Assembly (NCBI GenBank): GCA_902464275.1
Contig: CABQIK010000002.1
Location: 80,485-144,484 of the forward strand
DNA: 64,000 bases
Origin: an uncultured Alphaproteobacteria bacterium
GTDB taxonomy: Bacteria; Pseudomonadota; Alphaproteobacteria; RF32; CAG-239
Direction of reading: 5' to 3'
The notes under the pieces: model-generated
Told to the model about the DNA's origin: nothing
Database searches by the model: none
The model's input: the letters and a program-made list of their open reading frames with translations, nothing else
Made by a program: the position numbers and the translations under genes
Part shown: positions 10,291 through 59,352 of the stretch, one piece after another
Layout: each line of letters starts with the position of its first letter
Numbering within the stretch: the first letter of the stretch is position 1

Positions 10291-10301
10291 GAGAGGTTTA
10301 A

Positions 10302-11964: not shown

Positions 11965-12177
11965 TTAAATGTCAATTTCAACACCTCAACCGTCTAAAAT
12001 GTTAGTCCGGGCGCGGGATATTCTTTATGTCATACAAACGAGCATTCATTACCGAAAAAGAACCGGTGGCGGACTGGGAAACATAAGTAGATATTGGCTT
12101 AAATCGGCGGCAGATAACAGATACTTTTGTGCTTTAAAGTATCCGTAATTGCCGTCTCTTACTCAATTCACCACCAT

Positions 12178-13242: not shown

Positions 13243-13301
13243 AAATACAACTTATGCACAGCACGGACTCGTAAATATTGCAAAAAAAAAACGCGTGATA
13301 A
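13243..13301 (+). promoter_or_regulatory. Pilin-cassette copy 1 (upstream blocks only), in front of a glycosyltransferase gene
   Basis: AATACAACTTATGCACAGCACGGACTCGTAAATATTGCAAAAAAAAAACGCG matches the cassettes at 19741, 31261, 48712, 57681 and 58595. It is followed by TGaTAATAT (an extended -10-like element). Confidence 0.7.
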
Positions 13302-13353
13302 TATTTTTTCAAAAGTAAACATTTTAAGAAAGTTTGTTTCATAGAGAAGTGAA

Positions 13354-15311: not shown

Positions 15312-15312
15312 T

Positions 15313-16650: not shown

Positions 16651-16653
16651 AAA

Positions 16654-19600: not shown

Positions 19601-19665
19601 AAAGAAAAGAACTAAAAGCATATCTTAAAAATATAGAAAGAATTATGAGAAATGAACAATCTTGA
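16654..19665 (+). CDS. Three-domain fusion: TupA-like ATP-grasp + GT2 + GT8 glycosyltransferase
   Basis: 1003 aa. N-terminal PTTFNEKIQWLKLYD (TupA-like ATP-grasp). Central ISVIIPVYN / INDESPD / LDSDD (GT2). C-terminal FSTDNNY / YLDCDLIV / NSGVMII / HYTSHEKPW (GT8). Confidence 0.8.
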   Translation: MNFDYICNLNLPTDEYVSALQDWFMKQTKKYLNIENPTTFNEKIQWLKLYDSTPLKAQTTDKYLVRDWVKKKIGEEYLIPLLGVYNSFDEIDFDSLPNKFVIKTNHSSGWNCVVTNKKNINIDELRAKFNLWLNTNFAFMFGFELHYKDIKPKIIIEKFIQNKSGILYDYKFWCFNGEPKYIQFRDDWKADLKMAFFDTEWNKQEFHYDHPLYEKDLPKPDNLSEMLDIAKKLCKGFMFVCVDLYRLDNGKIYFGEMTYTRSSGIANWQPEEWNKKLGEMIKLPKNKEEIMKKCNYKITYEPKISVIIPVYNVEKYLPRCLDSVINQTLKDIEIICINDESPDKCNQILTEYAKQDKRIIVLNQKNSGQGSARNRGLEVAKGKYIQFLDSDDFYQPNCCEEMYNIMEKYSDVDVACFDTNIIYESFEDKKEEDASYFKMNFSGIQKNKPSMIRKLDCNCWNKIFRKSFIDEYGLRFPEKLHFEDVAFYWFWLSKSKKIYFYNKKLTNYIRRKGSFLGEIYTKSSTHIFEMFHVYELIYTDLIKNKKFDNYKEMFLQQYLNNFRWLRNCFSHNVTQEKRKLIDKCSVFLQTCDINHLELSSSDKKCFDNIISKNYYYFDAYNNHEIEEAFPVFPKDSINIVFSTDNNYIPYLAVAISSIIENSSPENNYDIIILYQAVYEYQKRFILSMVEKHQNISIRFFDMTQYIKNFGLDKLCTLNHITLSAYFRLFVGQIFTEYKKILYLDCDLIVTTDIAQLYHLDIGNYPIAAALDTTISHSLVVGGLNTNAWTAFRKYMSETLNFTSQTKYFNSGVMIIDIEKFNEMDLDYLIDLAQRNNKFFHDQNVLNAAFEGNYFELSPTWNFQWNIKFHSTDYKYVLSPDLLAFYEDPSIQANIVHYTSHEKPWKNPHHTFANIWWEYARKTPFYEIFLKDLNCNKMVASASDINKSLLLQILSYKKDKRRYYRYKILSKITFGNMRKYYKQKRKELKAYLKNIERIMRNEQS

Positions 19666-19740: not shown

Positions 19741-19861
19741 TAGGGTGAAGTTTTTGCATTGTGCCAATACAACTTATGCACAGCGCTGACTCGTAAATAT
19801 TGCAAAAAAAAAACGCGAGCTAAAATCTTCTCAAACGTAACAATTTGAGGAGATTTTAGCT
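19741..19861 (+). promoter_or_regulatory. Pilin-cassette copy 2 (full length: extended upstream block, A10, -10-like hexamer, SD-burying inverted repeat)
   Basis: TAGGGT..TTTTGCATTGTGCCAATACAACTTATGCACAGCGCTGACTCGTAAATATTGCA(10)CGCGAGCTAAAATCTTCTCAAA-loop-TTTGAGGAGATTTTAGCT, then ATG. Confidence 0.8.
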
Positions 19862-20464
19862 ATGAAATCAGAAAACGGGCGGTCTATGGTGGAAATGCTT
19901 GGCGTTTTAGCAATTATTGGTGTCTTATCGGTCGGCGCGATTGCCGGATACAGCAAGGCGATGATGAAATATCGGCTCAATAAGCAAGCGGACCAACTCA
20001 GCTGGTTATTAAACGTATTATACCGCTATAAAGATATGTTCGGACACAGTAAAGGCTACTTTGTGCCTTACTTAAAAACACTTAATGAAATTCCGCAAGA
20101 GATGATTAAAGCTAATGACAGCCATATTTATGATACTTTCGGATTTTTATACTACATAAATACCGATAACTGCACTGATGAATTTTGCAGAGCATCTACT
20201 CTTCTTATTCAGTCGCCGACTAATTACAAAAATTTTGATGTATGCCATAATATTTTTGAAACAGCCAAAGCCTTTTCTACGCAGCTTTATTATTTTAGTG
20301 CTTGGTCCGGTGAAGCGGGCGGGTTAGATTACCTTTATGGTGATACTTATTGTTCGTCCGTCCGTAAATGTTTAAAAGATTTATCCCAAAATGATATGTA
20401 TGAAATTTGTAAAAACTGTGCCGAAAAAAGCTGTAATTTTTATTTTAAGTATGAAATTAAATAA
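19862..20464 (+). CDS. Prepilin-type (class III signal peptide) pilin-like protein, paralogue 1
   Basis: 200 aa. MKSENG-RSMVEMLGVLAIIGVLSVGAIAGY has Gly-1 and Glu+5 followed by a hydrophobic helix. Conserved VCHNIFETAKA core and C-terminal Cys pairs. Confidence 0.8.
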   Translation: MKSENGRSMVEMLGVLAIIGVLSVGAIAGYSKAMMKYRLNKQADQLSWLLNVLYRYKDMFGHSKGYFVPYLKTLNEIPQEMIKANDSHIYDTFGFLYYINTDNCTDEFCRASTLLIQSPTNYKNFDVCHNIFETAKAFSTQLYYFSAWSGEAGGLDYLYGDTYCSSVRKCLKDLSQNDMYEICKNCAEKSCNFYFKYEIK

Positions 20465-20475: not shown

Positions 20476-20509
20476 AAACACCCGTGGCCATATAGACAAA
20501 CGGGTGTTT
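20476..20509. terminator. Bidirectional hairpin terminator between convergent genes
   Basis: AAACACCCG ... CGGGTGTTT (9-bp stem, 16-nt loop). A/T runs on both sides. Confidence 0.6.
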
Positions 20510-20531
20510 CTGTTTTACAAATGCCAAGCCA

Positions 20532-21062
20532 TCAGCTGAGCGGGCCTTTTGGATTGTTCCAAATCGGGTACGCATAAGGTATTTCTGCCTTTGGTAGTTC
20601 CGGTTCTTCATAATCTTCGGGCTGTTCCGGCTCTTCAACCTCTTCTGACTCAGACTCTTCATCCGGTTCATGACACTGGGCAATAATTTCCATGATTTCA
20701 GGCATGGTAGCGGTGCCTTCCTGGTCATTAGTGAATGCGCTTTCTATATTGCTTTCTTTGTCAGAGGCCTTGTCAATAGCCTGACGCAAGGCAACATAGC
20801 CATCCATTTCATCCAGCAGATTAATCGCCTTAAAGCTTGTGTCATAATGCTCAATGAGAGCATCCAAACCTTTATTAAGCGCCCAAGGACCCAGTTTGGT
20901 TTGCCATTTACGTAAGATGTAATACATCTCGCAAATACCACAAACACTGGTCTGCTCATAGCCTAAAAATATTCCTATGCCAAGCGCAAGCGCTTTGTCG
21001 GCACGTTGTTCTGCTTCCTTCAACTTTTGAATTTGCAGTTTTTTTATATCTTCCATATCCAT
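20532..21062 (-). CDS. Hypothetical protein with acidic C-terminal tail
   Basis: 176-aa ORF with tail EPDEESESEEVEEPEQPEDYEEPE. No recognised domain. Confidence 0.55.
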   Translation of the reverse strand: MDMEDIKKLQIQKLKEAEQRADKALALGIGIFLGYEQTSVCGICEMYYILRKWQTKLGPWALNKGLDALIEHYDTSFKAINLLDEMDGYVALRQAIDKASDKESNIESAFTNDQEGTATMPEIMEIIAQCHEPDEESESEEVEEPEQPEDYEEPELPKAEIPYAYPIWNNPKGPLS

Positions 21063-23301: not shown

Positions 23302-24363
23302 ATGAATAATATGAATAATCTTGCTTTACAGCAAAGAAAACGCCTTACAACCACTGCTAAAAAGTGGCTCGGCAACAGCTACCGTCCTAATTCGCTATAT
23401 CCTCAAAGAGATACGAAATTCTATTTGGGTGAAAAATATATTCCGTATGATTCATCTATAGAAACGGAAGATAGCTCTAATAACAAACTGTATAATGAAA
23501 TCATGAGTAATCCAAACCCGGATTACTCTTTAGATGACAATAAATCAAAAAATACCGAAAACCCATTTTCAAACAATCCGCTTAGTATTAATCCTAAGCC
23601 GACACAAAATATGTGGAACAAACTCAGCAATCCAAATTCTGAAAATGAATTTCAAAACAAATGTGTTGATTTCGGTACGCAAGAAACAATTAATACAAAC
23701 CCTTATTTCAAAAACAATAACACTAACGTAAATTCATTAAATGACTTATCTTCTTATGATAACCATTTAAGCGAACGGGAAAGAAGAGCCGCTATTGTAA
23801 ATGACCAACCTCTTAGATTAAAATTAGCCCCAAGCACAGAAACAGAAGTTATTTGGCCAGAAAAACACACGATTCCTTTTTTGGGTAAATTGTATGTAAA
23901 TAAATATAACAATTTGATAGAAGAGGCTGCTCAAAAATATGACATAGACCCCGATTTATTAAAAGCAACAATGTTTACTGAAATGAGTACAGGACATAAA
24001 TTTGGTTTAAATAACCTTGCAGATATACTTCACCGCTCCGATTCACAAAGCCCAATGAACATAAATGGTAAATTATGGGGTAATATTGGCAACCAACATT
24101 ATAACACGTATGAACCAGAGCAAAATATTGAAGCTGCCGCAAATTTACTTAAGCATCTGCAACAAGCAGTGCCAAATCCTAATGATTATGCGGCAATCGG
24201 CTCATTGTGGCATAATTTAAGCACTGATAAATTAGATTATATCGGACTTAGAATACATGATGCTTATATGCGAAAATTGTGGGAAAAAAGTGCCACTTCA
24301 AAAACACTACCTAAGAATATTTATAATTATATTTTTAATACTTTATTTGGTCATTATTATTAG
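23302..24363 (+). CDS. Lytic-transglycosylase (SLT family 1)-like protein with Asn/Pro-rich N-terminal half
   Basis: 353 aa with no obvious signal peptide. The C-terminal half shows SLT motif order: YNNLIEEAAQKYDIDPDLLKATMFTEMS (E-S), PMNIN, NIEAAANLL, AIGSLWHN. TTGACT -35 at 23239-23244. AT-rich. Confidence 0.6.
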   Translation: MNNMNNLALQQRKRLTTTAKKWLGNSYRPNSLYPQRDTKFYLGEKYIPYDSSIETEDSSNNKLYNEIMSNPNPDYSLDDNKSKNTENPFSNNPLSINPKPTQNMWNKLSNPNSENEFQNKCVDFGTQETINTNPYFKNNNTNVNSLNDLSSYDNHLSERERRAAIVNDQPLRLKLAPSTETEVIWPEKHTIPFLGKLYVNKYNNLIEEAAQKYDIDPDLLKATMFTEMSTGHKFGLNNLADILHRSDSQSPMNINGKLWGNIGNQHYNTYEPEQNIEAAANLLKHLQQAVPNPNDYAAIGSLWHNLSTDKLDYIGLRIHDAYMRKLWEKSATSKTLPKNIYNYIFNTLFGHYY

Positions 24364-24544: not shown

Positions 24545-25237
24545 ATGACAGAAAAAAATACAGCAGAGATTAAAAAAACTGATATTAAAGCCAGCTGCTT
24601 AAAAACACTCAAGAAATTTACAGCCTTCTTAAAAGCGGATATTAAAGGCAGCGATTTCAAAACGCTCAAAGGTCTTATAACCGCTTTACGTTATTTGTTG
24701 TATATCGTGCTTTATGCTAAATTTTTGTATATGATGAATATTTTAACTCATGACACATTGGATACAGATTTTTATGAGGCGTGTGTTCCTGTCGGCTTTT
24801 TTAACATTTATTCGGCGGAACCTGTTACCTATTTTACCATTTTCAGCTTTTTAGAAAGCTACGCGCATGTAAATCTTGCCGGAGATATGCATTTATGCCT
24901 GCCAAGCGCGTATTATTTTGTGGTTTTGGCATGGTATTTTCTTTTGTTTTATACCGCATTTAAAATCTTGTCATTTTGCGTATTGTGGAAAAAATTACCT
25001 TGGAAGTATGTAATTTTAGAAATTTGCGGATTGATAATTTGTCTTTCATATCATGACTTTATGGTTTTAATTCAATATGGAAGATACGGCTTAATTCCGT
25101 TTTACCTGCTCGGGACTATAATTTGCACATTTTATATGTGGGTATTTTTACTGATAGGTTGGGCGATATTAAAATTCATCGGTTATATATATCATTTGCT
25201 TGTAGCACCGCTGATCAGCCGGCTTAGAAGTAAATAG
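24545..25237 (+). CDS. Polytopic membrane protein, tandem paralogue A
   Basis: 230 aa with ~5 hydrophobic segments. The C-terminal 44 aa are identical to paralogue B. Confidence 0.7.
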   Translation: MTEKNTAEIKKTDIKASCLKTLKKFTAFLKADIKGSDFKTLKGLITALRYLLYIVLYAKFLYMMNILTHDTLDTDFYEACVPVGFFNIYSAEPVTYFTIFSFLESYAHVNLAGDMHLCLPSAYYFVVLAWYFLLFYTAFKILSFCVLWKKLPWKYVILEICGLIICLSYHDFMVLIQYGRYGLIPFYLLGTIICTFYMWVFLLIGWAILKFIGYIYHLLVAPLISRLRSK

Positions 25238-25275: not shown

Positions 25276-25842
25276 ATGACAGAAGAAAACAAAGATAATA
25301 ACAGATTAAAAACGCGCCAAGAGTTTATAACCGTTTTACATTATTTATTGTATATCGTGCTTTACGGCGCTTTTGTGTATATAATATTAAGTTTAAATCA
25401 TGACGATTTTATAGATTGGCATGCGACGTGTACTTCTGTCGGCAGTTTTAACATTAATTCAGCAGACCCAATCACCGACTTTACCATTTTCAGTTTTTTA
25501 GATAACACTGCAAACTTAAATTTCGCAGGAGAGATACATTTATGCTTACCGAAAATGTTCGGATTTATGCTTTTAGTTTGGTATTTTTTTGTATTGTATA
25601 TGATATTTAAAACCTTATCATTTTCTATGTTGCCACCCCAAAAGCGGCGAATGTTTGACATTTTAGAAATTTGCGGATTGATAATTTGTCTTTCGTATCA
25701 TGATTTTATGGTTTTAATTCAATACGGAAGATACGGTTTAATTCCGTTTTATCTGCTCGGGACTATAATTTGCACTTTTTATATGTGGGTAATAATGCTG
25801 TTAAGGTGGATAATATTTAAATTGTTTGCCAAACACTATTGA
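25276..25842 (+). CDS. Polytopic membrane protein, tandem paralogue B
   Basis: 188 aa. Shares YLLYIVLY... and ILEICGLIICLSYHDFMVLIQYGRYGLIPFYLLGTIICTFYMWV with paralogue A. Confidence 0.7.
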   Translation: MTEENKDNNRLKTRQEFITVLHYLLYIVLYGAFVYIILSLNHDDFIDWHATCTSVGSFNINSADPITDFTIFSFLDNTANLNFAGEIHLCLPKMFGFMLLVWYFFVLYMIFKTLSFSMLPPQKRRMFDILEICGLIICLSYHDFMVLIQYGRYGLIPFYLLGTIICTFYMWVIMLLRWIIFKLFAKHY

Positions 25843-29061: not shown

Positions 29062-31185
29062 ATGAAAATGTTAAAGCCGTCTAAACTTTTACTTTTTTCT
29101 TTGATAACAGCCGTTATCACCGGACTTGCCGGGTTTGACGGCGTTTCGGCAGCCTCACGGCAGTCGGCTTACACCGTGCGCGATATGATGGCGCGCCGCG
29201 GTCGTCCGCCCAAGAGCGTGACCAAGCCCGCCAAACGCACCACTCCTAAAGTTATCCGCAAATCGGCCGCGGAAGGCTCTTATACCAATGTCGGAACCAG
29301 TAATGCCGCCGGTTTTGAACAAACCGTATTGCTTAACAAAGACGGGAGCTTGTTTCCGGGCGGTCCGTGCGTTGAGTGCCAAACCGGTCCGATTGATAAA
29401 GACGGCAGTTTGTTTCCGGGCGGCTCCTGTGTAAATTGTCAGACCGGCCCGCTCATTGACACCGGCCCCTGCATTGATTGTCAGACCGGCCCGCTTATTG
29501 ACACCGGTCCGTGCGTAAACTGCGAAAAGCCCAAACCGCTTATTGCCAATTATGCCATTCCTTATACTCCGTATATTTATCAGTCGGTGGAGCGTAATTG
29601 CTGCGCCATGGCTCCGCTTTATTTGGAACATGTTGACTTTAACCTTGCCAATGTGCCGAATAACGGACCGGAAAAACTCGGTAATTATCGTTTCAGAATT
29701 TTCGGGTGCCGCCGTTATGATAAAGAAGCCATATTAAACCGCGGTCGCATAATGGAAAAAGATATGAACTTCTCGCAAATTTTTGAAGAAGTTACCGGCG
29801 ATTGCTACAATCTGGTTAAAATGCCTGATGATTTGTGCCTGCAAACCACTCCTTCTCCGTTGCCTGAATATATTTTAACTGCGGAAATCACCAACTTCTT
29901 TATGAACGTGTGCGACGGTTATGACTGGCAAGACGTTCAAAAGCAAAACGCGCGCACCGGTTCGGCTGAAATGACGGTTACGTGGCGCTTGACCAACCTT
30001 ACCAAGACCAAAGTTTTGTGGGAAGGGCAAACCACCGGTTACAGCGACTTAGACAACGGCGCTGCCAATGGCGAAATTAAGCTAGTGGAAGACGCTTTTG
30101 CCGATGCCGCAAGCAATTTAAGCACCATGCCGGGATTTGAAGATCAGCTTATGGTTCGCTTAACGCCGGAAGAATTAACCGAACAGCGCAACGCCTTAAT
30201 TGATGAAGAAATTGCCTTAAATCCGGCCAAATGCCGTTTTGAGGAAGAGCTTACTCAGGTTAAAAACTGCGAAATAAGCCGTCCGGAAAGCGATATTAAC
30301 CAATGCCCGGCTTATATTGAGCAAAAATCAGGCGTGGTTTCAGATTATGAATTGTTTGATAATGTGGTGGTTGAAAACAGCGGCGTTGTTTCAGACGGCG
30401 ATTGCGCCAAAGTTGACGACACTTGGGTTGACATGCAGCAAAACACCACTTCATTTGACAGTCTGTGCATTGTTGACAGACCTCCGTATGAAACATTAAG
30501 TCCCGAAAATTTATATAAAGTCAGAGCCTCTGTGGTTGAAATTAACGGTAACGCCGGTAAAAAAGGCGCCGGTCTGATTATTTCAGAGTCGTTTGTTTTA
30601 ACTTCAGCCGATTTGGTTGATAAAACTAACAATCATTACCAAATTAAAACCATTAACGGCAAAGAGCTGACCGGTCATGCGGTACGCGTAAATCCGGCTA
30701 AAAACATTGCGTTGATTATGCTGGATACACCTACCGAATATACCCCGCTTTCATTGAATTTAGACTTGCCGAAAGTAAACCAAAGCGGCTTTATGGTGCT
30801 TGGCGTGCTTGACGTGCCGACTTTCAGCGATGGCGAAAACTACATTGACAACAGCGGTAAAGTTGCCGGATACCGTTATTCGGAAGACAAAGGTTCAGAA
30901 ATCATGATGAACACTTTTGTACAAAATGTTACCATCGGCGGCATTTTGATTGATGCCAACGGTACCGTTAACGGGGTGGCTCATTCCGGTAAAAAGACTG
31001 ACAGCGGTATGGATTTGTTCCTGCCAACCGAAACCGCTTTGCGCAGCGTCGGGCTCTCAATTTGTGAAAAACTTTACGCCAAACCGAGTCCGTGGCAGCA
31101 AACGGTTTATAAACCGGTGACCGAAAAAATTATGGCTCCGGCGCCTAAAGCTCCTGAAGCCATGAAAGAAAAAGACCGCAAATAA
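29062..31185 (+). CDS. Secreted protein: Cys-rich CxxCQTGP repeats + central domain + trypsin-like C-terminal domain that appears to lack the catalytic triad
   Basis: 707 aa with a signal peptide. The C-terminal GAGLIISESFVLTSADLV / KNIALIML / VTIGGILID aligns by eye with the TxAHV / DIALL / GDSGGP positions, with H, D and S all replaced. Confidence 0.6.
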   Translation: MKMLKPSKLLLFSLITAVITGLAGFDGVSAASRQSAYTVRDMMARRGRPPKSVTKPAKRTTPKVIRKSAAEGSYTNVGTSNAAGFEQTVLLNKDGSLFPGGPCVECQTGPIDKDGSLFPGGSCVNCQTGPLIDTGPCIDCQTGPLIDTGPCVNCEKPKPLIANYAIPYTPYIYQSVERNCCAMAPLYLEHVDFNLANVPNNGPEKLGNYRFRIFGCRRYDKEAILNRGRIMEKDMNFSQIFEEVTGDCYNLVKMPDDLCLQTTPSPLPEYILTAEITNFFMNVCDGYDWQDVQKQNARTGSAEMTVTWRLTNLTKTKVLWEGQTTGYSDLDNGAANGEIKLVEDAFADAASNLSTMPGFEDQLMVRLTPEELTEQRNALIDEEIALNPAKCRFEEELTQVKNCEISRPESDINQCPAYIEQKSGVVSDYELFDNVVVENSGVVSDGDCAKVDDTWVDMQQNTTSFDSLCIVDRPPYETLSPENLYKVRASVVEINGNAGKKGAGLIISESFVLTSADLVDKTNNHYQIKTINGKELTGHAVRVNPAKNIALIMLDTPTEYTPLSLNLDLPKVNQSGFMVLGVLDVPTFSDGENYIDNSGKVAGYRYSEDKGSEIMMNTFVQNVTIGGILIDANGTVNGVAHSGKKTDSGMDLFLPTETALRSVGLSICEKLYAKPSPWQQTVYKPVTEKIMAPAPKAPEAMKEKDRK
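29338..29523 (+). repeat. In-frame degenerate tandem repeats encoding Cys-rich units
   Basis: KDGSLFPGGxCVxCQTGPID occurs twice, followed by TGPC(I/V)(D/N)C(Q/E).. units. Confidence 0.8.
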
Positions 31186-31260: not shown

Positions 31261-31380
31261 TAGGGTTTATTTTGCATTGTGCCAATACAACTTATGCACA
31301 GCGCTGACTCGTAAATATTGCAAAAAAAAAACGCGAGATAAAATCTTCTCAAAACTAACTTTTTGAGAGGATTTTAGCTC
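31261..31380 (+). promoter_or_regulatory. Pilin-cassette copy 3 (full length)
   Basis: Same blocks as copy 2. Inverted repeat GAGATAAAATCTTCTCAAAA / TTTTGAGAGGATTTTAGCTC abuts the ATG at 31381. Confidence 0.8.
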
Positions 31381-32016
31381 ATGTATACACAATCCGGAAG
31401 AAGTATGGTTGAGATGCTCGGAGTTCTGGCGATTATCGGGGTGCTGTCAGTTGGCGCTATTGCCGGTTACGGAAAAGCTATGTTCAAGTACAAACTTAAC
31501 AAACAAACCGAACAATTAAATCAGGTTATCGGTGCCATCGTGCGCTATAAAAGCAGTTTACTGCTTAATCCCAATCCGGCGGATGATACCAATCTAAGCG
31601 ACTTTCAATTAGTGTCATTACTTAAAAAGCTCGGTGAAATTCCAAAAGAGATGTATACATCCAGTGATGTATACATCAAAGATGCTTTCGGCACTCAATA
31701 TTATGTTTATAATCGTAACACTCATAAGAACATGGTTTTTTTACGAACTCGTAGCATGGATCGTAATGACAGCTCTTTTCAGATTTGTAAAAATTTATAC
31801 TTAATCGCCAAAGAATGGCACCAAGAATTACATTCTATACGTGTTGCAGCTTATAAAGGCGATGATTTTGACAGCCAAGGAACATATTGCGGCGATAACA
31901 CTCTAAATTCATATTGTTTTAAACGCATTAAAGATTTACGATTAACCGACCTTGACGATATTTGCCGAACCGCCGCTGAAGAGCAAGGCTCATATTCGGT
32001 TATGTTATATTTTTAA
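31381..32016 (+). CDS. Prepilin-type pilin-like protein, paralogue 2
   Basis: 211 aa. MYTQSG-RSMVEMLGVLAIIGVLSVGAIAGY, plus the ICKNLYLIAKE core and C-terminal Cys residues. Confidence 0.8.
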   Translation: MYTQSGRSMVEMLGVLAIIGVLSVGAIAGYGKAMFKYKLNKQTEQLNQVIGAIVRYKSSLLLNPNPADDTNLSDFQLVSLLKKLGEIPKEMYTSSDVYIKDAFGTQYYVYNRNTHKNMVFLRTRSMDRNDSSFQICKNLYLIAKEWHQELHSIRVAAYKGDDFDSQGTYCGDNTLNSYCFKRIKDLRLTDLDDICRTAAEEQGSYSVMLYF

Positions 32017-43560: not shown

Positions 43561-43775
43561 GGTTACACCCTAAATTTTATTGTATTTTAGGCGGTTATAG
43601 TATATGATGCTTAACAAAGCAAGCAATTTTTACACTTAAAATTTTATTTTTAAAAATATAAAAATATTTTTCGCTAAAATTTGCATTTTTTGACAAAAAA
43701 GCTATTGAAAATCAAAATATTTTATTGTATACTGCGAACAATCAGAAACTTTTTTACACACGGGAGTGCTTAATT

Positions 43776-46700
43776 ATGGCAAAGAACGCTAAAGTTAAAA
43801 TGGATTTGAATGAAGCTGTTACGATTTTGCAGGGTGAAACTATCGCCAAAGCAAAAGGCGCGGACGGCTATTCGGCGGCAGAAGTAAAAGAGGCATTAAA
43901 GATTGTTAAAGCGCAAGATCCGGACAATCAGGTTTTGTATCAGTATATGCTTATTACCGTGTTTCAACCGGTTAAAGCGCAAGATCCGGACAATCAGGTT
44001 TTGCATGTTTATAATGAACAGGCTAAAAATGCCCAAAATACCGCGGGCAAAACAAATGCCGAAACAACTTCTAAAACCGGTAAAAAAACCGGCGCCAAAA
44101 AAGCGGCTAAACCTGCTAAAAGCGCAAACAAAGCTCAGGTTTTGCGTTCTGATGCTTCCGACAATAAAAAACCGGATTTTAACGAGGCCGTCACCATTTT
44201 GCAAGGCGAGGCTATTGCCAGAGCCAAAGGCGCAGAAGGTTTTTCAAAGGCTGAAGTTGAAGAAGCTCTTAAAATTGTTAAGGAGCAAGACCCTGACAAT
44301 AAGGTATTAAACATTTACATGCAACAAGCAAAAAATGCCGAAAAAGCCGAGAGTATCCCTGTAAAAAATGAAAATTCCGCTGATAAAAAGGCTGAAAATA
44401 AAAAGGCTGAAAACAAGCTTGAAAACGTTTCTGCGCAAAATGCCGAAAATCGGCAGGTTTTGCGTCCGGTTCCTCCGGCAGAGTCCATGAGCTTAGACGA
44501 GGCGGTTGCCATTTTGCAAGGCGAGGCTATCGCGGCCTTAAACGGCGCCGACGGATTTTCGCAAAGCAAAATTCAGGAAGCCTTGAAAGTTGTGCAGGAT
44601 AAAGACCCGAATCATCCGGCTTTAAAAGCTTATCAGGAACAGCTTGCCAACTTTGAAAAAGCCAACAAGCTGCAATCAAACAATCCGGTAATTTACGCGC
44701 AAAACTCAGAAGACACTGACTTTACGCTCAGAGGCTACACTTTTGATAAGTTTACCGAAAGCTCTGAAAATGACGACATTCGCGAATATATTGGCAATAC
44801 GGAGCTTACTGACAGCGTCAGCGGCAAAGTTTTGGAAGCTCAGGAACGCAAAGATTATCTTAACCTGATTTTTGAAGGCGCTAAGTTAAAAACCGAAACC
44901 TCATTAATAGGTGATGAAAAGTACGCCAAATTAAGCAATGCCCAGAAAATTAAGACGATTAAAGCAGAGCTTAAAACTATTTTCTTTGCTGACTTTGCCC
45001 GCACTGCCATTGCGTCAGATTTAGAAAAGCCAACCACTTTGGAGCAACGTATCGGCTCTAAAGAATATAAAGATTATATTCTGCGTCAATCACAAAAAGC
45101 TTCGGGCATTATGCAAAAAATTGTCAGCGGCGGTCAAAAGATTAAAATTAAAACCGACGCCATTTTGGCTTCATGCGCCGATACCGCGGCTCAGACCGAA
45201 CAATATATTAAAGGCCTGAGATTAAAAGCTCAGCAAGCTGTTGCGCAAGCTTCGCAATCGGCTAAAAACGGAGCGCAAAAAGCTTCAGACAATATACGTA
45301 ATGATTTTAACAAAATAGCCGACCGCTTGCAGAAACATAAAAACAATTTTGAGCAGCTGGCTAACAATGTTTCAAAAAATCGTTATCAAATTTTCAAGAA
45401 TATTAAAGGAAGTTTCAGTGATAACAAAATTAAATTGTTTGGCAATGTTGCCGCTAACGCCGCATTCGGTTATGTGACGGCGGCTGCCGCTTCCGGCGCG
45501 GTTGCCGGCGCAGCTGCTCCGGTATTGGTTCCGGCCGTTGCCGCTTATGCGGTATATCATGCCGCCGGTTCATTGGTATATCCGGTTGTGGCGGAAATTC
45601 GCAAAATCAACCGTCAAAAACGAGAAGCCGGTGAAGCGACCTTGCCGTTTATGCAAGCCTTAAAGCAAGCTTGGAAAAATAAAACCGAGTCTCGTAAAAA
45701 CAGACGCACCTATATTGTCAGCGTCTTAATCAACACCGCTGTTGCCGCCGGTGGTTTTGCATGGTTGAAAGACGGTTTGGAAGCCGCCGATGCCGCCGCA
45801 GCGTTGACTGACGGAGTTAAAGACGGCTTGAACGTTACTTTAGCATCCAGCATTGCCGAAACTCGTCATGCTATCAGTATGGGACGCGCAGGCGCCGCCA
45901 CCATGGCGCAGTTAGCAGATGCAGGTGTTGCTTACGGCGTTTCAGTTGCCGACCCGCAAAACTTAGAGAAAAAAGCCGAGGCTAAACAAACCGCGATTGC
46001 CGCTTTGATCGGTATGGGCTTAAACGCCGCCGCTCAGGGCTTGAGTTCGGCATTGCAAAATATTAACACCGCTAACGGCGAAATATCAGATGTGCTCTCA
46101 TCAGATAATGGCACCCCTGCTCCGGTTAACAATCCGGTTAATGACGATGGAATTGTAAATCCGGTAACCGGCGCTCCGGTTAACAATCCGGAAGCAAATG
46201 ATGTTGCCCCCGCTCCGAGTGCAGGCGATAATGTTACTGATATTGCCGACACCACTAATGACGCCTCTGTTGCTCCTAAACCAAACTTTGTTAAAGGTTT
46301 GTGGAATAAGTGGTTTGGCGGCAGAAGTAATGATGAAGCCCCTTCAACCCCGATTGTCGGCGACGGCAGAAACCCTGACGGAAGTTGGCAGGTTTCAGAC
46401 GGAAACGGCGATGCCGTTAATATTGTGGATAATGGCGGCAACGCAGGCGATGTTGATGTTGCAACCAATGGCGGAAATGTTCCTGCCGGTTTATTCCCGA
46501 GAGAATATAATCAGGATATGGGCATCAGCCAAAGAGAATATAACACTTTGGTTAATACCACTGAAGGCACGCTTAAAGCCGCAACCGGCGAAGAAGTTAC
46601 TTTGGACAGAGCTTACAGCAATCTCAGCGGCTCTATGGATCAATTTAAAGGCAGAACCGAAGAAGAAATTATGTACAAATATAACCGCTTGTATGCCTTT

Positions 46701-47459
46701 ATGCGTAAGGCTTACAGCGTTGGGGACGGAACCTTGCGCGAAACCCCGTCAGGCAGCGAGTATTTAACTTCTCGTTTCAGCAACATTAATATTCCTGGCA
46801 TGAATGAAGATAAAATGTCGCAGTTGGTTGATTTTGCTAAGGATAACACCTATGCAAACAAAGCTGAACTTAAAGAAGGACTAAATAAACTCTTCCCTGA
46901 AGGGTTAAGCAACAAAGATATGACAGCATTGATTACAACTATTCACAGCAACCAACGCTTTAACCAATACCAGTCTGAAATGGAAGCCTTAACCAAACTG
47001 CTTGGTTGCGGTGAAAAAATCAGCAATGAAGATGCTTTGGCTATCAACAAAATGTTAGATAATACCGACGCTTTGCTCGCAACCGGTAAAGCTCACACTC
47101 AGTTGACCGGTTTGAGCCTGGCTAAAGATTGCAACGATGATGACGGAGAATGGATACGCGTTGCTGTTCAGCCGAAAGAAGTTCCGCTTCCGGAAACTCC
47201 TGAACTTGGCGATGCCGAATTACCTGATGACGAGATTGTAATTGCCGCTGCTCCGCAAATGCAGTTGCAACCGGATGAAGGTTTGCAGGTTGAACCGATG
47301 GCTGCTCCAACTGAACAACCGCAAGACGGCGTTGAAAAAATTGTCGGTGATAAAATGTCACAAGTCAGAGGCGAAAACGAACCCGATTATCGCAAGCCGG
47401 TATCGGATAGAAAAGCCGCCCGCTTATTGAAGAGAATTAACAGCGGTTCTCGTGAATAA
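43776..47459 (+). CDS. Large (1227 aa) repeat-containing membrane-associated protein, unknown function
   Basis: ATG 43776 with RBS GGGAG is preferred over 43725. Three ~45-aa modules (NEAVTILQGExIA.AKGA.G(Y/F)S.AEV.EALKIVK.QDPDN.VL). Ala-rich hydrophobic segments mid-protein. Acidic, Pro-rich C-terminus. Confidence 0.75.
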   Translation: MAKNAKVKMDLNEAVTILQGETIAKAKGADGYSAAEVKEALKIVKAQDPDNQVLYQYMLITVFQPVKAQDPDNQVLHVYNEQAKNAQNTAGKTNAETTSKTGKKTGAKKAAKPAKSANKAQVLRSDASDNKKPDFNEAVTILQGEAIARAKGAEGFSKAEVEEALKIVKEQDPDNKVLNIYMQQAKNAEKAESIPVKNENSADKKAENKKAENKLENVSAQNAENRQVLRPVPPAESMSLDEAVAILQGEAIAALNGADGFSQSKIQEALKVVQDKDPNHPALKAYQEQLANFEKANKLQSNNPVIYAQNSEDTDFTLRGYTFDKFTESSENDDIREYIGNTELTDSVSGKVLEAQERKDYLNLIFEGAKLKTETSLIGDEKYAKLSNAQKIKTIKAELKTIFFADFARTAIASDLEKPTTLEQRIGSKEYKDYILRQSQKASGIMQKIVSGGQKIKIKTDAILASCADTAAQTEQYIKGLRLKAQQAVAQASQSAKNGAQKASDNIRNDFNKIADRLQKHKNNFEQLANNVSKNRYQIFKNIKGSFSDNKIKLFGNVAANAAFGYVTAAAASGAVAGAAAPVLVPAVAAYAVYHAAGSLVYPVVAEIRKINRQKREAGEATLPFMQALKQAWKNKTESRKNRRTYIVSVLINTAVAAGGFAWLKDGLEAADAAAALTDGVKDGLNVTLASSIAETRHAISMGRAGAATMAQLADAGVAYGVSVADPQNLEKKAEAKQTAIAALIGMGLNAAAQGLSSALQNINTANGEISDVLSSDNGTPAPVNNPVNDDGIVNPVTGAPVNNPEANDVAPAPSAGDNVTDIADTTNDASVAPKPNFVKGLWNKWFGGRSNDEAPSTPIVGDGRNPDGSWQVSDGNGDAVNIVDNGGNAGDVDVATNGGNVPAGLFPREYNQDMGISQREYNTLVNTTEGTLKAATGEEVTLDRAYSNLSGSMDQFKGRTEEEIMYKYNRLYAFMRKAYSVGDGTLRETPSGSEYLTSRFSNINIPGMNEDKMSQLVDFAKDNTYANKAELKEGLNKLFPEGLSNKDMTALITTIHSNQRFNQYQSEMEALTKLLGCGEKISNEDALAINKMLDNTDALLATGKAHTQLTGLSLAKDCNDDDGEWIRVAVQPKEVPLPETPELGDAELPDDEIVIAAAPQMQLQPDEGLQVEPMAAPTEQPQDGVEKIVGDKMSQVRGENEPDYRKPVSDRKAARLLKRINSGSRE
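43905..44003 (+). repeat. Perfect 33-bp direct repeat (43905-43937 and 43971-44003) separated by 33 nt, inside the CDS
   Basis: GTTAAAGCGCAAGATCCGGACAATCAGGTTTTG occurs twice. It encodes VKAQDPDNQVL twice, with YQYMLITVFQP in between. Confidence 0.9.
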
Positions 47460-48711: not shown

Positions 48712-48810
48712 AAATACAACTTATACACAGCACGGACTCGTAAATATTGCAAAAAAAAAAGCGCGAGCTAAAATCTTCTCAAAACTAACTTTTTGAGAGG
48801 ATTTTAGCTC
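48712..48810 (+). promoter_or_regulatory. Pilin-cassette copy 4
   Basis: AAATACAACTTATACACAGCACGGACTCGTAAATATTGCA(10)GCGCGAGCTAAAAT... The 20-bp inverted repeat 48765-48784 / 48791-48810 has one G-U position and abuts the ATG. Confidence 0.8.
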
Positions 48811-49581
48811 ATGTATACATATTTTAGCCGCTTTTTACACAACACTCTGTCACGCACCGGTATAAAAGAGGTGTTCACCTCTTCTTTGTCACTCTCCGAC
48901 TTGATCGGAGAGTCCAGGTCAAACCAAGTAGCTAATTTGTCCCACCTGGATTATCGGGTCAAGCCCGATAATGACAACATAGAGAATGCTGGACGTAGTA
49001 TGGTAGAAATGCTTGGGGTGTTGGCGATTATCGGGGTGCTGTCAGTCGGCGCTATCAGCGGTTACTCTAAGGCAATGTTCAAGTATAAATTAAATAAACA
49101 ATCAGAGCAGTTAAGCACCATCATTAACGCCTCAATTCGTTATTATAATGATTTGCGGCTAATAAGTTCTGAAGGTGAATACAATTTAATCCCGATACTT
49201 GATAAACTCGGTGAAATTCCAAAAGAAATGATAGTACAAAATAATAATTGGATTCTTAAAGATGTGTTTGACACCACCATAAACATTTATTATCACAATA
49301 CAAACTATCTGGGCATAACTGATTTGATTGATAAAAGCAGTAGAAGTATGGAAATTTGCCGCAATATTATTATCACCGCAAAAGAAAATCACGCCGATAT
49401 TTACCAAATATTTTTCCGCAATGATTATAGCGATAAACAAGAATATTCACGCCACATAAGCGGGGACAAAATATGTGGTCCGGCAAATGTTTGTTTGAAA
49501 GATATGAGCATAAAACAAATTGATGACGCTTGCAGTTTTTGCGCCTCTGATAAATGTTGGCTTTACATTCAGCTCATGTAA
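48811..49581 (+). CDS. Prepilin-type pilin-like protein, paralogue 3, with 57-codon insertion in the leader peptide
   Basis: 256 aa. MYT + 57 inserted codons + GRSMVEMLGVLAIIGVLSVGAISGY. The downstream part is a normal family member (EICRNIIITAKEN, C-terminal Cys residues). May be impaired in processing. Confidence 0.6.
   Translation: MYTYFSRFLHNTLSRTGIKEVFTSSLSLSDLIGESRSNQVANLSHLDYRVKPDNDNIENAGRSMVEMLGVLAIIGVLSVGAISGYSKAMFKYKLNKQSEQLSTIINASIRYYNDLRLISSEGEYNLIPILDKLGEIPKEMIVQNNNWILKDVFDTTINIYYHNTNYLGITDLIDKSSRSMEICRNIIITAKENHADIYQIFFRNDYSDKQEYSRHISGDKICGPANVCLKDMSIKQIDDACSFCASDKCWLYIQLM
48820..48990 (+). mobile_element. 171-nt in-frame, hairpin-rich insertion (REP/REPIN- or RPE-like small element candidate)
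   Basis: It replaces the 6 nt CAATCC of paralogue 2. Three hairpins at 48866-48883, 48891-48913 and 48951-48971; the second and third have mutually complementary loops (CTTGA / TCAAG). Confidence 0.4.
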
Positions 49582-57640: not shown

Positions 57641-57680
57641 AAAAATCCTAACTATTTACGAGTAAAATGGTTTTAATCAG

Positions 57681-57770
57681 AATACAACTTATGCACAACA
57701 TAGACTCGTAAATATTGCAAAAAAAAAACGGCGTCTATAATGTTTTATTATAGCACTTTAGAGAGGATTT
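57681..57770 (+). promoter_or_regulatory. Pilin-cassette copy 5 (divergent 3' part)
   Basis: AATACAACTTATGCACAACATAGACTCGTAAATATTGCA(10)CGGCGTCTATAATGTTTTATTATAG. A TATAAT at the same offset lies inside a different 7-bp hairpin. SD GAGAGGA. Confidence 0.75.
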
Positions 57771-57773
57771 TTG

Positions 57774-58493
57774 ATGATAAATACACAATCAGGAAGAAGT
57801 ATGGTGGAGATGCTCGGCGTTTTGGCGATTATCGGGGTCTTATCCGTGGGGGCGATTGCCGGATACAGCAAGGCAATGATGAAATACAAACTCAATAAAC
57901 ATGCTGAGCAGATGAATCAGATTATGGCGGCAATCAGTCGTCACACCGGTTCTTTTAAGAATATCCAATACGAAAGTTTTGTTACAGGCGCATTTACTAA
58001 AATGGGAGAATTTCCAAGTGAAATGTCTCAAGACAATAATACTGTAAGTGTTTATGATATTTTTAAAAATCGTATATCTGTTGTATATTCTCCAAAAACT
58101 TCAAGCTCCAACCATAGTGCTCAGAATGAAATCAGGTTAGATTATTATTTATCCACTGACAGCAATACCGCTGTTGAGCTGTGTCGTTCATTGTTTGTTG
58201 CCGCCAAAGAGCAAAGCGGCGAGTTACACCGGATATTTACTACGACTAGCAGTAGTCCAAACGACCAAAACCAATATTACGGCGATAAGTATTGCACTAA
58301 CAACTGCATTAAAAATCTTAGTATGAACACTATCGGCAATATCTGCGCGAATGCTCAAGGTAAATCAAGTAATATCCGAGATAATGACATGGCCGGCGAA
58401 ATGTCATTATCCACCTTCGGATTAAGTATCGGTGGCTCTGATGATACCAGCAACAATATTGATAGCATAAACTTTGTGTGGAAAGCTGACTAA
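57774..58493 (+). CDS. Prepilin-type pilin-like protein, paralogue 4
   Basis: M(I)NTQSG-RSMVEMLGVLAIIGVLSVGAIAGY with the ELCRSLFVAAKEQ core. ATG 57774 (6 nt after GAGAGGA) is preferred over TTG 57771. Confidence 0.8.
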   Translation: MINTQSGRSMVEMLGVLAIIGVLSVGAIAGYSKAMMKYKLNKHAEQMNQIMAAISRHTGSFKNIQYESFVTGAFTKMGEFPSEMSQDNNTVSVYDIFKNRISVVYSPKTSSSNHSAQNEIRLDYYLSTDSNTAVELCRSLFVAAKEQSGELHRIFTTTSSSPNDQNQYYGDKYCTNNCIKNLSMNTIGNICANAQGKSSNIRDNDMAGEMSLSTFGLSIGGSDDTSNNIDSINFVWKAD

Positions 58494-58523
58494 GAAGTTA
58501 TTTGAACATAGCTTAGATATTAC

Positions 58524-58559
58524 AAAAAATGTTGCAAATTTGAATTTGCAACATTTTTT
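58524..58559 (+). terminator. Perfect 17-bp-arm palindrome / terminator
   Basis: AAAAAATGTTGCAAATT-tg-AATTTGCAACATTTTTT. The right half-site is repeated at ~58572-58587. Confidence 0.65.
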
Positions 58560-58594
58560 GCAATATTTTTTAAATTTGCAACATTTTTGGGTAT

Positions 58595-58689
58595 CCACAA
58601 CTTATACACACCCCGGACTCGTAAATATTGCAAAAAAAAAACGCGAGCTAAAATCTTTTCAAAACAACTAATTTGAGGAGATTTTTATT
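58595..58689 (+). promoter_or_regulatory. Pilin-cassette copy 6
   Basis: CCACAACTTATACACACCCCGGACTCGTAAATATTGCA(10)CGCGAGCTAAAATCTTTTCAAA...TTTGAGGAGATTTTTA, then ATG at 58690. Confidence 0.8.
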
Positions 58690-59352
58690 ATGAAATCAGA
58701 AAACGGCAGAAGTATGGTGGAAATGCTTGGCGTGCTCGCTATTATCGGCGTTTTATCTGTCGGGGCTATCAGCGGATACTCCAAGGCCATGTTTAAGTAT
58801 AAGCTCAACAAACAGGCGGAAAGTTTCAGCATGCTGTTAAATGAGGCGATAATGCTTTTGCCTGATTTAGAGCGTCATTACGGTAAAAACGTTACAACCC
58901 GCAATAACCTGAATGACTTTTTCTATAAAGCCAACCTGTTGCCGGACGGTATGACTTATAATGCGGCGGATAACCGTATTTATGATATATTTAAGAACAA
59001 AATTCTGTTGCATTATACTATGTCTATTCATGGCGACGGCAGCACATCAACGGACTATTATATGGCGATTGAAACGAATCACGCGGGCGGCACAATCAGC
59101 GGGCAAAATAACGAAATTTGCCGCAATATATTTCTTGTCGCCAAAGAAAACGCCCAAAATATTTTAAGTATAGAAATGCGCTCCACCAGAACAGACGGAT
59201 ATTCCACAGTAATATTACGCGGCGGACGTCATCCAACCTCAAACACTTTAAGCAAAGCCTCTATAAAGCAAATTAATGACACGTGCTCTTCATGCAATGC
59301 GGAAAAGGGTTGCGAAATCTTTTTAGTTATAAATGAAGCGCCCAACCCGTAA
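58690..59352 (+). CDS. Prepilin-type pilin-like protein, paralogue 5
   Basis: 220 aa. MKSENG-RSMVEMLGVLAIIGVLSVGAISGY, the EICRNIFLVAKEN core, and C-terminal CSSCNAEKGC. Confidence 0.8.
   Translation: MKSENGRSMVEMLGVLAIIGVLSVGAISGYSKAMFKYKLNKQAESFSMLLNEAIMLLPDLERHYGKNVTTRNNLNDFFYKANLLPDGMTYNAADNRIYDIFKNKILLHYTMSIHGDGSTSTDYYMAIETNHAGGTISGQNNEICRNIFLVAKENAQNILSIEMRSTRTDGYSTVILRGGRHPTSNTLSKASIKQINDTCSSCNAEKGCEIFLVINEAPNP

Follow-up and report, generated by a model that had tools for sequence, protein, structure and literature searches.

A dispersed and greatly expanded gene family with a type IV pilin-like N-terminus in uncultured gut Alphaproteobacteria

What is encoded by five related genes that lie dispersed among the housekeeping genes of an uncultured gut alphaproteobacterium, and are their products parts of a pilus? 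The genes lie in the window, i.e., the whole 64 kb stretch of DNA that was analysed, and a preliminary description had read them as a large, diversifying family of paralogues: pilus subunits, pseudopilins or pilin-like secreted adhesins. A six-frame motif scan of the window found exactly five family ORFs, all on the + strand: p1 (19862-20464; 200 aa, with the leader MKSEN-G followed by RSMVEML...), p2 (31381-32016; 211 aa, leader MYTQS-G), p3 (48811-49581; 256 aa, leader of 60 residues), p4 (57774-58493; 239 aa, with a C-terminal extension) and p5 (58690-59352; 220 aa), the last being the member that was modelled with AlphaFold2 and used as the query in homologue searches. The scan and an ORF check thus agree with the five genes first described, in position and strand, and their dispersal among housekeeping genes was borne out; a sixth family member lies just beyond the 3′ end of the window (L001, 18657-19262). 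Each gene had also been said to carry its own terminator, which holds for p1 and p4 only. A terminator-like hairpin, read from the sequence, follows p1 (20476-20516, + strand; AAACACCCGT...ACGGGTGTTT, then a T run), and a terminator-like 17-bp stem with a T run follows p4 (58523-58570, + strand), whereas no hairpin with a T run was evident in the short stretches read 3′ of the stop codons of p2 and p3.

The five proteins share an almost invariant N-terminus, G-RSMVEMLGVLAIIGVLSVGAI(A/S)GY(S/G)KAM(M/F)KY(K/R)LNK (the hyphen follows Gly-1), which is laid out as a type IV pilin (class III) signal with Gly-1, Arg+1, Glu+5 and 21 mostly hydrophobic residues. Such signals are defined by a hydrophilic leader with Gly as its last residue, a tract of 21 mostly hydrophobic residues and a Glu at position 5 (PMC4471445), and both the Gly-ended leader and the hydrophobic tract with Glu+5 can be read directly from the sequence. 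Among 144 representatives of the family with overall identities below 50%, Arg+1, Ser+2, Met+3 and Glu+5 are each kept in 144/144 and Gly-1 in 143/144, while the leader, residue -2 included, varies; conservation sets in sharply, exactly at Gly-1, and runs for about 37 residues. Arg at +1 is atypical among known prepilin peptidase substrates. Over the 37 shared codons of the five genes, pS is 0.59-1.08, i.e., saturated, versus a pN of 0.035-0.12. Because the synonymous sites are saturated, selection acts on the protein, and the shared N-terminus is the outcome of neither chance nor gene conversion. The diversifying paralogous family was thus recovered, with an N-terminus of class III (prepilin) type bearing Arg+1.

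Profile searches point in the same direction at low scores. N_methyl (PF07963) is the sole weak Pfam match common to all five proteins, at 13.9-16.2 bits versus a cut-off of 21.2, and TIGR02532 reaches 10.0-15.1 bits versus 16.3, both below threshold; among the weak NCBIfam matches, TIGR02532, GspH and prepilin peptidase-dependent protein models recur. When a profile of the family was compared with PDB sequences, the only matches were type IV pilins, Geobacter among them, and the alignment runs in register (G with G, E5 with E5, AIIG with AIIG, Y with Y or F). A small-x-small motif (A-I-A/S before G-Y) is conserved on the C-terminal side of the hydrophobic tract, with A in 130/144 representatives and A, S or T in 143/144; this motif would also suit signal peptidase I. 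A double-glycine leader cut by a peptidase-containing ABC exporter was considered and rejected, given that position -2 is S, C, A or N, that the proteins are about 200 aa long with a transmembrane helix, and that the window's ABC transporter (588 aa) has no peptidase domain among its Pfam matches.

Beyond the shared N-terminus, two features reported at the outset were confirmed, a C(R/K/H)N..AK(E) motif in mid-protein and Cys residues towards the C-terminus. In 64 sequences C144 and C199 are invariant, which would fit an extracytoplasmic location. The proposed structure prediction of the C-terminal domains was carried out on p5. AlphaFold2 predicts a helix over residues 8-64 (57 residues), followed by a sheet of about five strands with two extra helices (pLDDT 87 and 94). 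The helix from about residue 30 is predicted with high confidence in the truncated model, the transmembrane part itself with low confidence, and the globular domain of about 160 residues is confidently modelled (pLDDT 94). Foldseek searches of the PDB with the full-length and truncated p5 models gave no match at E <= 1e-3, and the 50 best matches listed include no pilin or pseudopilin and have TM-scores of at most 0.28. The top matches, fragments of Cas7/Csy and GyrB, were taken as noise at these TM-scores.

The globular domains differ strongly between strains. Relative to a conspecific MAG, amino-acid identity is 97-99% for the neighbouring UvrB, ComM, UvrC and EngB, 55% for p1, 79% for p3 and below 45% for the genes at the p4/p5 position. 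The family alleles are older than their flanks, dS in the globular domain being 0.63, versus 0.23 for uvrC. The dN/dS analysis that had been suggested gave 0.18-0.28 for the globular domains, which is raised and below 1; there is thus no sign of pervasive positive selection.

The family itself is far larger than the preliminary description had supposed: each genome carries tens of copies, and at 50% identity the members fall into more than 5,000 clusters, all seen in MAGs of gut Alphaproteobacteria. It has no Pfam domain, and in public records its members are named only 'type II secretion system protein', 'pseudopilin PulG' or 'hypothetical protein'; the literature on the clade (RF32, CAG-239), searched for pili and prepilin, yielded nothing on the family. 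Copies often break assemblies, and about half of the cassette copies described below sit at contig ends.

The leader ranges in length from 5 to more than 90 residues, and its sequence is unconstrained. About 44% of members carry hairpin-rich leader inserts of 54-273 nt; of 49 long leaders, 48 keep the reading frame and contain no stop. The 60-residue extension of p3, which had been read as a leader, is an in-frame, hairpin-rich module insertion of this family-wide kind, which the preliminary description had missed (48820-48990, + strand), with three perfect 8-9 bp stems and an RNA fold z of -4.0, and is missing from the orthologue in MAG HGM16767. The hairpin cores occur in both orientations, and about 66 of their 69 occurrences lie within leaders of the pilin-like family. 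A permissive Rfam scan of the p3 5′ region returned only miRNA-type matches, which were dismissed as chance, and Rfam gave 0 matches over the whole window at the gathering threshold.

Each of the five genes does stand behind its own cassette, as had been claimed. The cassette, a strongly conserved 5′ element, spans about 100 bp and combines promoter-like hexamers with an A9-A13 tract; most copies also have a hairpin that takes in the Shine-Dalgarno site. Its elements are TTGC-A10, TAAAAT and the hairpin. The cassette of p1 (19765-19861) reads ACAACTTATGCACA..GACTCGTAAATATTGC-A10-CGCGAGC-TAAAAT, and its hairpin would pair CTTCTCAAA with the Shine-Dalgarno site TTTGAGGAG; those of p2 (31283-31380) and p5 (58593-58689) are conserved copies, that of p3 (48712-48810) has A10 followed by an extra G, and that of p4 (57680-57773) has the variant CGGCGTC-TATAAT and a Shine-Dalgarno site without a hairpin, all on the + strand. 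A sixth copy on the same strand (13243-13353) precedes a GT2 glycosyltransferase gene (13354-14346) and downstream polysaccharide genes. The cassette is not specific to the family, since copies also precede surface-polysaccharide and secreted-protein genes, and it therefore marks out a candidate cell-surface regulon. In the hairpin, 95-100% of pairs are canonical, and the changes are one-sided only (C-G to U-G, U-A to U-G); an RNA hairpin over the Shine-Dalgarno site is thus plausible rather than proven. The retention of pairing through G.U-type changes suggests that the 5′ arm is transcribed, in which case the A tract would belong to the 5′ UTR, with the start site upstream of it. A sigma-70 scan did not call the cassette (TTGCAA-15 nt-TAAAAT) because the spacer is 15 nt, and a by-eye comparison with the sigma-54, sigma-28 and sigma-32 consensus sequences gave no convincing fit.

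Pilus machinery was sought in the window, in about 10 kb past each end and in about 1.4 Mb from at least 15 related MAGs and metagenomes, a sample of partial assemblies only that amounts to roughly 0.5-0.8 genome equivalents at an assumed genome of about 2 Mb. The statement that the 64 kb contains no pil or gsp genes was upheld by E. coli Gsp/Hof queries and by Pfam scans or precomputed Pfam matches covering most genes, and none was found in about 10 kb past each end either. The prepilin peptidase and the T4P, T2SS and Tad loci, which the preliminary description proposed to locate, were searched for as well, and none was found in the 1.4 Mb partial sample. Over the window and this sample, tblastn with E. 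coli GspO together with a GxGDxK motif scan found no prepilin peptidase, and tblastn found no match to the GspF/HofC platform or the GspD secretin. The full set of E. coli queries (GspC-O, HofB, HofC and PpdD) returned only N-terminal look-alikes to GspJ and VirB11-like matches to GspE, the latter being two orthologous genes (in L057 and L068). The VirB11-like gene of L068 adjoins a VirB10-like gene, which suggests a type IV secretion system. Regular-expression scans for canonical GFTLIE prepilins, Flp/TadE motifs and A24 GxGDxK motifs yielded nothing credible in the sampled DNA. Because the machinery was not found, a role as swappable pilus or surface parts is one that we only infer.

Taken together, we estimate a probability of about 0.55 that the genes encode proteins descended from type IV pilins and form a lineage-specific, greatly expanded family in uncultured gut Alphaproteobacteria, with a presumed filament or surface role. 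In its favour we counted the class III layout, the boundary at Gly-1, the in-register pilin matches in the PDB, protein-level selection, the 48 of 49 in-frame leaders, the predicted helix and sheet, the hypervariable islands, the dispersal and a planctomycete precedent; against it, the machinery not found in the sample, the sub-threshold HMMs, the lack of a Foldseek pilin match, Arg+1 and the small-x-small motif. In this mechanism the leader would stay cytoplasmic, a prepilin (A24) peptidase whose gene lies outside the sampled DNA of this genome would cut it off behind Gly-1, and the invariant helix would serve as both inner-membrane anchor and common assembly interface of a type IV filament or pseudopilus. 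Exposed and interchangeable, the variable domains would act as adhesins or as targets of phage or IgA, and their diversity may be maintained by recombinational allele replacement under frequency-dependent selection. The claim that the proteins are pilus subunits is so far not supported, in that no solved pilin or pseudopilin matched the globular domain, N_methyl and TIGR02532 stayed below threshold, and peptidase and assembly genes were not found in the 1.4 Mb of sampled clade DNA.

It is possible, if rather less probable, that the pilin-derived N-terminus serves as a membrane anchor or sorting tag only. The proteins would then be unpolymerised and either periplasmic with an inner-membrane anchor or surface-associated, with the peptidase optional, in the manner of the Sulfolobus 'bindosome' sugar-binding proteins or the planctomycete N_methyl + SBP_bac_10 proteins. 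A globular domain with no pilin fold match, large (about 160 aa) and with extra helices, a paralogue number in the tens per genome, which the planctomycete family shares, and the lack of machinery in the 1.4 Mb partial sample all agree with such a role, and non-pilin proteins with class III signals are known (PMC4471445). However, some 37 invariant residues including Glu+5 exceed what a simple anchor needs, Glu5 of pilins being needed for assembly and not for processing, and even the bindosome relies on a type IV filament system (PMC4471445). An ordinary Sec (class I) signal would place a signal peptidase I cut after A-I-(A/S) and release a soluble periplasmic or secreted protein starting at G-Y-S-K, with the pilin likeness vestigial. 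The conserved small residues at -3 and -1 before G-Y (A in 130/144; A, S or T in 143/144), the N_methyl scores below threshold and the failure to find a prepilin peptidase in the sampled DNA would suit this, but we regard it as improbable: signal peptides are normally poorly conserved, whereas the tract, Gly-1, Arg+1 and Glu+5 are here invariant under saturated synonymous change. It is also unusual for a Sec signal to carry a charged Glu amid its hydrophobic residues, or an n-region as long as those found here (60 to more than 90 residues), and AlphaFold2 predicts residues 8-64 as one continuous helix, the transmembrane part at low confidence.

A separate question, compatible with any of these readings, is whether the genes are phase-variable in the manner of the Mycoplasma Vlp proteins, each being turned ON or OFF independently of the others when the A tract in its promoter spacer slips; we consider this unlikely. 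The A9-A13 tract does lie between TTGC and TA.AAT, compensating lengths keep the total spacing at 17 nt in two clades (A10+7, A12+5), and the tract differs by +/-1 among loci of one genome (A9, A10, A11). However, its length is constant in 9/9 same-locus groups across assemblies, a weak test in that consensus assemblies hide minority variants; TTGCAA-15 nt-TAAAAT fails the standard sigma-70 scan; and the 5′ arm of the hairpin is seemingly transcribed, which would place the tract in the 5′ UTR. A homopolymer beside a promoter need not, moreover, act as a switch of expression (PMC2268961). The individually switchable expression that had been proposed is thus not borne out, the tract differing only between loci. 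More speculative, and quite unlikely in our estimate, is that the N-terminus is a universal address tag of a hypervariable surface repertoire with no canonical, or with a very divergent, filament machine, or that the leader is a landing pad for in-frame hairpin modules which, together with the cassette, set or switch translation of each paralogue. If true, either would represent a new way for gut bacteria to vary their surface.

Whichever reading holds, this is a large family, abundant in human and animal gut metagenomes, for which no Pfam domain or structural relative in the PDB was found. If exposed, the proteins would probably be a main repertoire of variable antigens, adhesins or phage receptors of an uncultured gut alphaproteobacterial lineage. 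The leader, which takes modules of up to more than 90 codons, is a natural test of how much a class III leader tolerates, and the near-invariant elements of about 100 bp in the candidate cell-surface regulon are ready regulatory targets. The cassette and N-terminus also break short-read assemblies, which bears on MAG quality in the clade.

Like type IV pilins and T2SS pseudopilins, the family has a short hydrophilic leader ending in Gly, Glu+5, and AIIG and Tyr at pilin-like positions, and a long N-terminal helix is predicted to precede a β-sheet domain with conserved Cys residues. A Lys-rich stretch behind the transmembrane segment is shared with GspG. We note several differences from type IV pilins, however: Arg rather than Phe or Met at +1, HMM scores below the cut-offs, an N-terminus in which about 37 residues are invariant, leaders that can exceed 90 residues, a fold with no match to a solved pilin among the 50 best Foldseek matches listed, and genes that lie singly at scattered sites, tens in each genome, with no machinery genes close by. 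The family resembles the type IVb pilins (TcpA, BfpA, CofA) in its larger mature size of about 190-200 aa, in having long leaders and no Phe at +1, and in the predicted extra helices round a five-stranded sheet, whereas type IVb pilins are single major pilins in compact operons that carry the machinery, unlike this dispersed family; no type IVb pilin is among the 50 best Foldseek matches listed.

A parallel in genomic arrangement is the planctomycete family that combines a prepilin signal (N_methyl) with SBP_bac_10 (DUF1559); its members number 41 to about 100 in each genome, lie evenly distributed around the chromosome and are described as of unknown role (PMC8567305). Both families are greatly expanded, dispersed and equipped with a prepilin signal. 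However, the planctomycete family belongs to a different phylum, and the five proteins lack SBP_bac_10, with no Pfam match to it at E <= 1 in any of them. The accessible text of the planctomycete source reports neither a 5′ cassette nor leader modules (PMC8567305).

Two further systems resemble these genes at the 5′ end. The Vlp genes of Mycoplasma hyorhinis are paralogues with a conserved 5′ region and signal sequence, divergent mature parts and a homopolymer in the putative promoter spacer. The family shares this arrangement of a conserved 5′ region and signal ahead of divergent parts, with a homopolymer in a putative promoter spacer, and Vlp switching proceeds by nucleotide insertion or deletion in the -35/-10 spacer. 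However, Vlps are lipoproteins clustered at one locus whose switching has been shown experimentally, whereas the family here is dispersed and shows no variation in tract length at any one locus (9 groups, consensus assemblies). The leader modules, in turn, are similar to the Rickettsia palindromic elements (PMC10969869), in that both occur in an alphaproteobacterium, are palindromic, measure about 50-270 nt and sit in frame in a gene, so that the host protein includes their translation. The Rickettsia elements occupy many unrelated host genes, whereas about 66 of the 69 occurrences of the hairpin cores here lie in the leaders of one family.

The five pilin-like genes named in the preliminary description, p1 (19862-20464), p2 (31381-32016), p3 (48811-49581), p4 (57774-58493) and p5 (58690-59352), were all confirmed as ORFs on the + strand, and a six-frame motif scan of the window returned these five and nothing more. 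A sixth member lies just past the 3′ end of the window, at 18657-19262 of the related contig L001. The five proteins have the N-terminal motif G-RSMVEMLGVLAIIGVLSVGAI(A/S)GY(S/G)KAM(M/F)KY(K/R)LNK in common, and the mid-protein motif and C-terminal cysteines ascribed to them were likewise recovered, i.e., C(R/K/H)N..AK(E) and Cys residues common to p1-p5; outside the shared motifs, the other four are just 29-43% identical to p5. Over the 37 shared N-terminal codons, pN is 0.035-0.12 vs. a saturated synonymous pS of 0.59-1.08. Because synonymous sites are saturated and pN is low, the N-terminal similarity, judged from these codons, is neither chance nor recent gene conversion.

A conservation profile of 144 representatives, less than 50% identical overall, places the onset of conservation exactly at Gly-1 (143/144), the last residue before the putative prepilin cleavage site, with residue -2 free. 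Arg+1, Ser+2, Met+3 and Glu+5 occur in all 144, followed by about 30 further near-invariant residues. This agrees with the claimed class III (prepilin) signal under the published definition used for comparison (PMC4471445), the exception being Arg at +1. Sequence matches of the family profile in the PDB are pilins only, aligned in register.

The leader was surveyed in 112 non-redundant members linked to the cassette, a conserved 5′ element of about 100 bp. It comprises 5-6 codons in 63 members; the other 49 carry 54-273 additional nt between codon 3 and Gly-1, and 48 of these 49 keep the reading frame and contain no stop codon. The insert of p3 (48820-48990) contains three perfect 8-9 bp hairpins (fold z = -4.0) and is missing from the orthologue in the related MAG HGM16767 (CAAFZY01). 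The hairpin cores of the inserts occur in both orientations and are nearly confined to leaders of this family, and most p5 orthologues have leader inserts, of several types.

An AlphaFold2 model of p5 (pLDDT 87 at full length; pLDDT 94 and pTM 0.90 for residues 29-220) predicts a helix at residues 8-64, followed by a sheet of about five strands and two extra helices, one of which bears the EICRN..AKEN motif. C144 and C199 are invariant. A Foldseek search against the PDB gave no match at E <= 1e-3, and the 50 best matches listed include no pilin.

A scan of GTDB species genomes yielded at least 551 confirmed members. The 80 loci kept come from gut MAGs titled Alphaproteobacteria or Proteobacteria, bar one bin that contributes 15 of the 80 and is labelled Lachnospiraceae, probably wrongly. 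The window has a G+C content of 39%, and proteins identical to its own were found on gut metagenome contigs. A word-indexed search gave more than 7,800 matches, and HMMER, run exhaustively against 1.84 billion representatives clustered at 50% identity, found 5,374 at E <= 1e-3 (3,195 at E <= 1e-10), so the family is far larger than was supposed. The word-search matches listed include no Pfam domain; the few source names among matches are 'type II secretion system protein', 'pseudopilin PulG' and 'hypothetical protein', with one 'YsxB (DUF464 family)', and the family is absent from the literature searched. In one low-coverage metagenome (ERZ1034928), the cassette appears on about 50 contigs. 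A contig end lies less than 150 nt away from about half of all cassette copies, and for 37 of the 80 genome loci the start is no more than 500 nt from such an end; the conserved 5′ part is therefore a point at which assemblies break. We infer tens of copies per genome; the density in the window is 0.8 copies per 10 kb.

HGM16767 matches the window at the amino-acid level by 98% (UvrB, ComM), 97% (UvrC) and 99% (EngB), values at which the two are essentially conspecific. Nucleotide identity is 91-100% in the flanks and falls to 30-80% in the pilin-like genes, with amino-acid identities of 55% for p1 and 79% for p3. Another family member stands at the p4 position, and the HGM16767 locus ends too early for p5 and gap to be compared. 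For the globular part of p3, dS is 0.63 and dN 0.18, vs. 0.23 and 0.015 for uvrC; dN/dS is below 1 for the alleles compared. Since the globular dS exceeds that of uvrC, the alleles are, by this measure, older than their flanks, an age that would fit recombinational replacement or balancing selection. A different upstream context of p5 was seen in another population (contig L002, 8619-10663), where the gene is joined to topA, a 96-aa ORF and a zeta toxin. The breakpoint falls inside the cassette. Two samples contain this contig, which reflects either a real cassette-mediated rearrangement or an assembly join at the repeat.

Between p1 and uvrB lies an acidic 176-aa ORF (20532-21062, - strand) without a Pfam match, whose identity to HGM16767 is only 45%; the hypervariable island therefore reaches past p1. 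A 707-aa protein (29062-31185) that contains Cys-rich repeats, each about 20 aa long (DGSLFPGGPCVxCQTGP), and has a weak Trypsin_2 match may be another fast-evolving exported protein, because it is 85% identical to HGM16767 vs. 98% for its neighbours.

Each gene was said to have its own cassette, and the same one indeed precedes all of p1-p5. It reads ACAACTTAT(G/A)CACA-N6-GACTCGTAAATATTGC-A10-CGCGAGC-TAAAAT, and in a second clade GACTCTTTAAAATTGC-A12-CGGTT-TAGAAT. The spacing of TTGC and TA.AAT, 17 nt, is the same in the two clades, because the lengths of tract and remainder compensate. Although non-coding, the cassette is near-identical between paralogues and across species while the adjoining N-terminal synonymous sites are saturated, which implies selection on it at the nucleotide level. 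It did not pass a standard sigma-70 scan. The cassette also heads a GT2 glycosyltransferase operon (13243-19665; GT2 gene, 13354-14346), in which a UDP-glucose dehydrogenase gene and a gene for a 1003-aa multi-domain glycosyltransferase follow. In related genomes it stands upstream of GT2 and GT8 genes and of a Cys-rich secreted protein family (MSRNF...LTCRNDYSG...). This placement before polysaccharide and secreted-protein genes suggests a shared cell-surface regulon, of which the cassette looks like an element, rather than a sequence reserved for the pilin-like genes.

Most cassettes, that of p4 excepted, contain a hairpin in which CTTCTCAAA pairs with the Shine-Dalgarno region TTTGAGGAG. 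Among 91 unique UTRs, its pairs are 95-100% canonical, with no double compensatory changes; many of the substitutions are G.U-type ones that would leave a mismatch in DNA. The canonical pairing and the tolerance of G.U-type changes suggest that the hairpin acts as RNA, covering the ribosome-binding site. In second-clade UTRs (L045, L046, L073, L076), TTTTGCAA just before the Shine-Dalgarno site is, by eye, complementary to TTGCAAAA where the A tract begins, and a long-range stem taking in the tract is thus possible there.

As the preliminary description stated for pil and gsp genes, neither these nor tad genes were found in the window. Homologues of GspD, GspF and GspO, the A24 motif, canonical prepilins and the Flp/TadE motif were also missing from about 1.07 Mb of GTDB and ENA loci plus 0.31 Mb of metagenome loci, where the GspE-like matches were two orthologous VirB11-like genes only (L057, L068). 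The one examined, in the HGM16767 locus L068 (2812-8090), encodes a VirB11-like ATPase and adjoins a gene for a VirB10/TrbI-like protein, a neighbour that assigns it to a type IV secretion system, which the clade therefore has. The VirB10/TrbI-like protein (1431 aa) has long Gly/Asp/Asn-rich repeats and is followed by another repeat protein, of 1370 aa, and the VirB11/VirB10-like genes adjoin a pilin-like family member. The sample, from at least 15 genomes, amounts to about 0.5-0.8 genome equivalents at about 2 Mb per genome and is biased to family flanks; within that coverage, it suggests that type IV pilus machinery may be absent from the clade.

Among other neighbours, a defence island (window 1-12000 and the 10 kb beyond it; locus L172, 1-21650) comprises type I restriction-modification genes (HsdM/S/R, adjacent to the window on its left), AAA_15/AAA_21 ATPases, a D12 methyltransferase, RloB and AbiEii. 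To the right of the window lie gltX, cysS and a further pilin-like member. Tandem paralogues of 230 and 188 aa (24545-25237 and 25276-25842), with DNA blocks 74-88% identical and no Pfam match, lie downstream of an SLT-domain protein (23302-24363), and a 1244-aa protein with internal repeats (43725-47459) belongs to no Pfam family.

With a probability of about 0.55, we favor descent of the family from type IV pilins; the variable domains would be modules exposed on a filament or pseudopilus, and the genes for that structure would lie elsewhere. Because conservation begins sharply at Gly-1, any in-frame leader is tolerated, and Glu+5 and the whole helix are invariant, the leader would be removed after Gly-1 and the N-terminal helix would serve as a shared assembly or anchoring interface; these same features favor pilin derivation. 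The proteins could instead be anchored or displayed by such a helix without polymerisation, a tentative alternative to which we give about half the weight. That they are secreted by Sec and cut by signal peptidase I between the (A/S) and the G of the conserved A-I-(A/S)-G sequence appears quite improbable.

Vlp-type poly-A switching is a regulatory question that stands alongside these readings of the protein. Individually switchable expression had been proposed, and tract lengths do vary between loci, with A10 (n = 55), A9 (n = 14), A11 (n = 7), A12 (n = 14) and A13 (n = 1) in genome loci and the window, and A10 (n = 65), A9 (n = 14), A11 (n = 4) and A12 (n = 1) in metagenome loci. However, tract length never differed between assemblies at the same locus (9 groups), and such switching, possible but unsupported, seems unlikely.

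The family is notable for its size, new fold, leader modules and shared cassette, with a function that we infer. Among the known systems closest to it, it has the layout of type IV pilins and pseudopilins but misses their HMM cut-offs. Type IVb pilins resemble it in size, leader length and +1 residue. The planctomycete N_methyl+SBP_bac_10 family is dispersed and shows the same kind of expansion with a different domain (PMC8567305). In Vlp-type families, too, a homopolymer accompanies a conserved 5′ region (PMC2268961). RPE-type elements are in-frame and palindromic, like the leader inserts, but unlike them are not single-site (PMC10969869).
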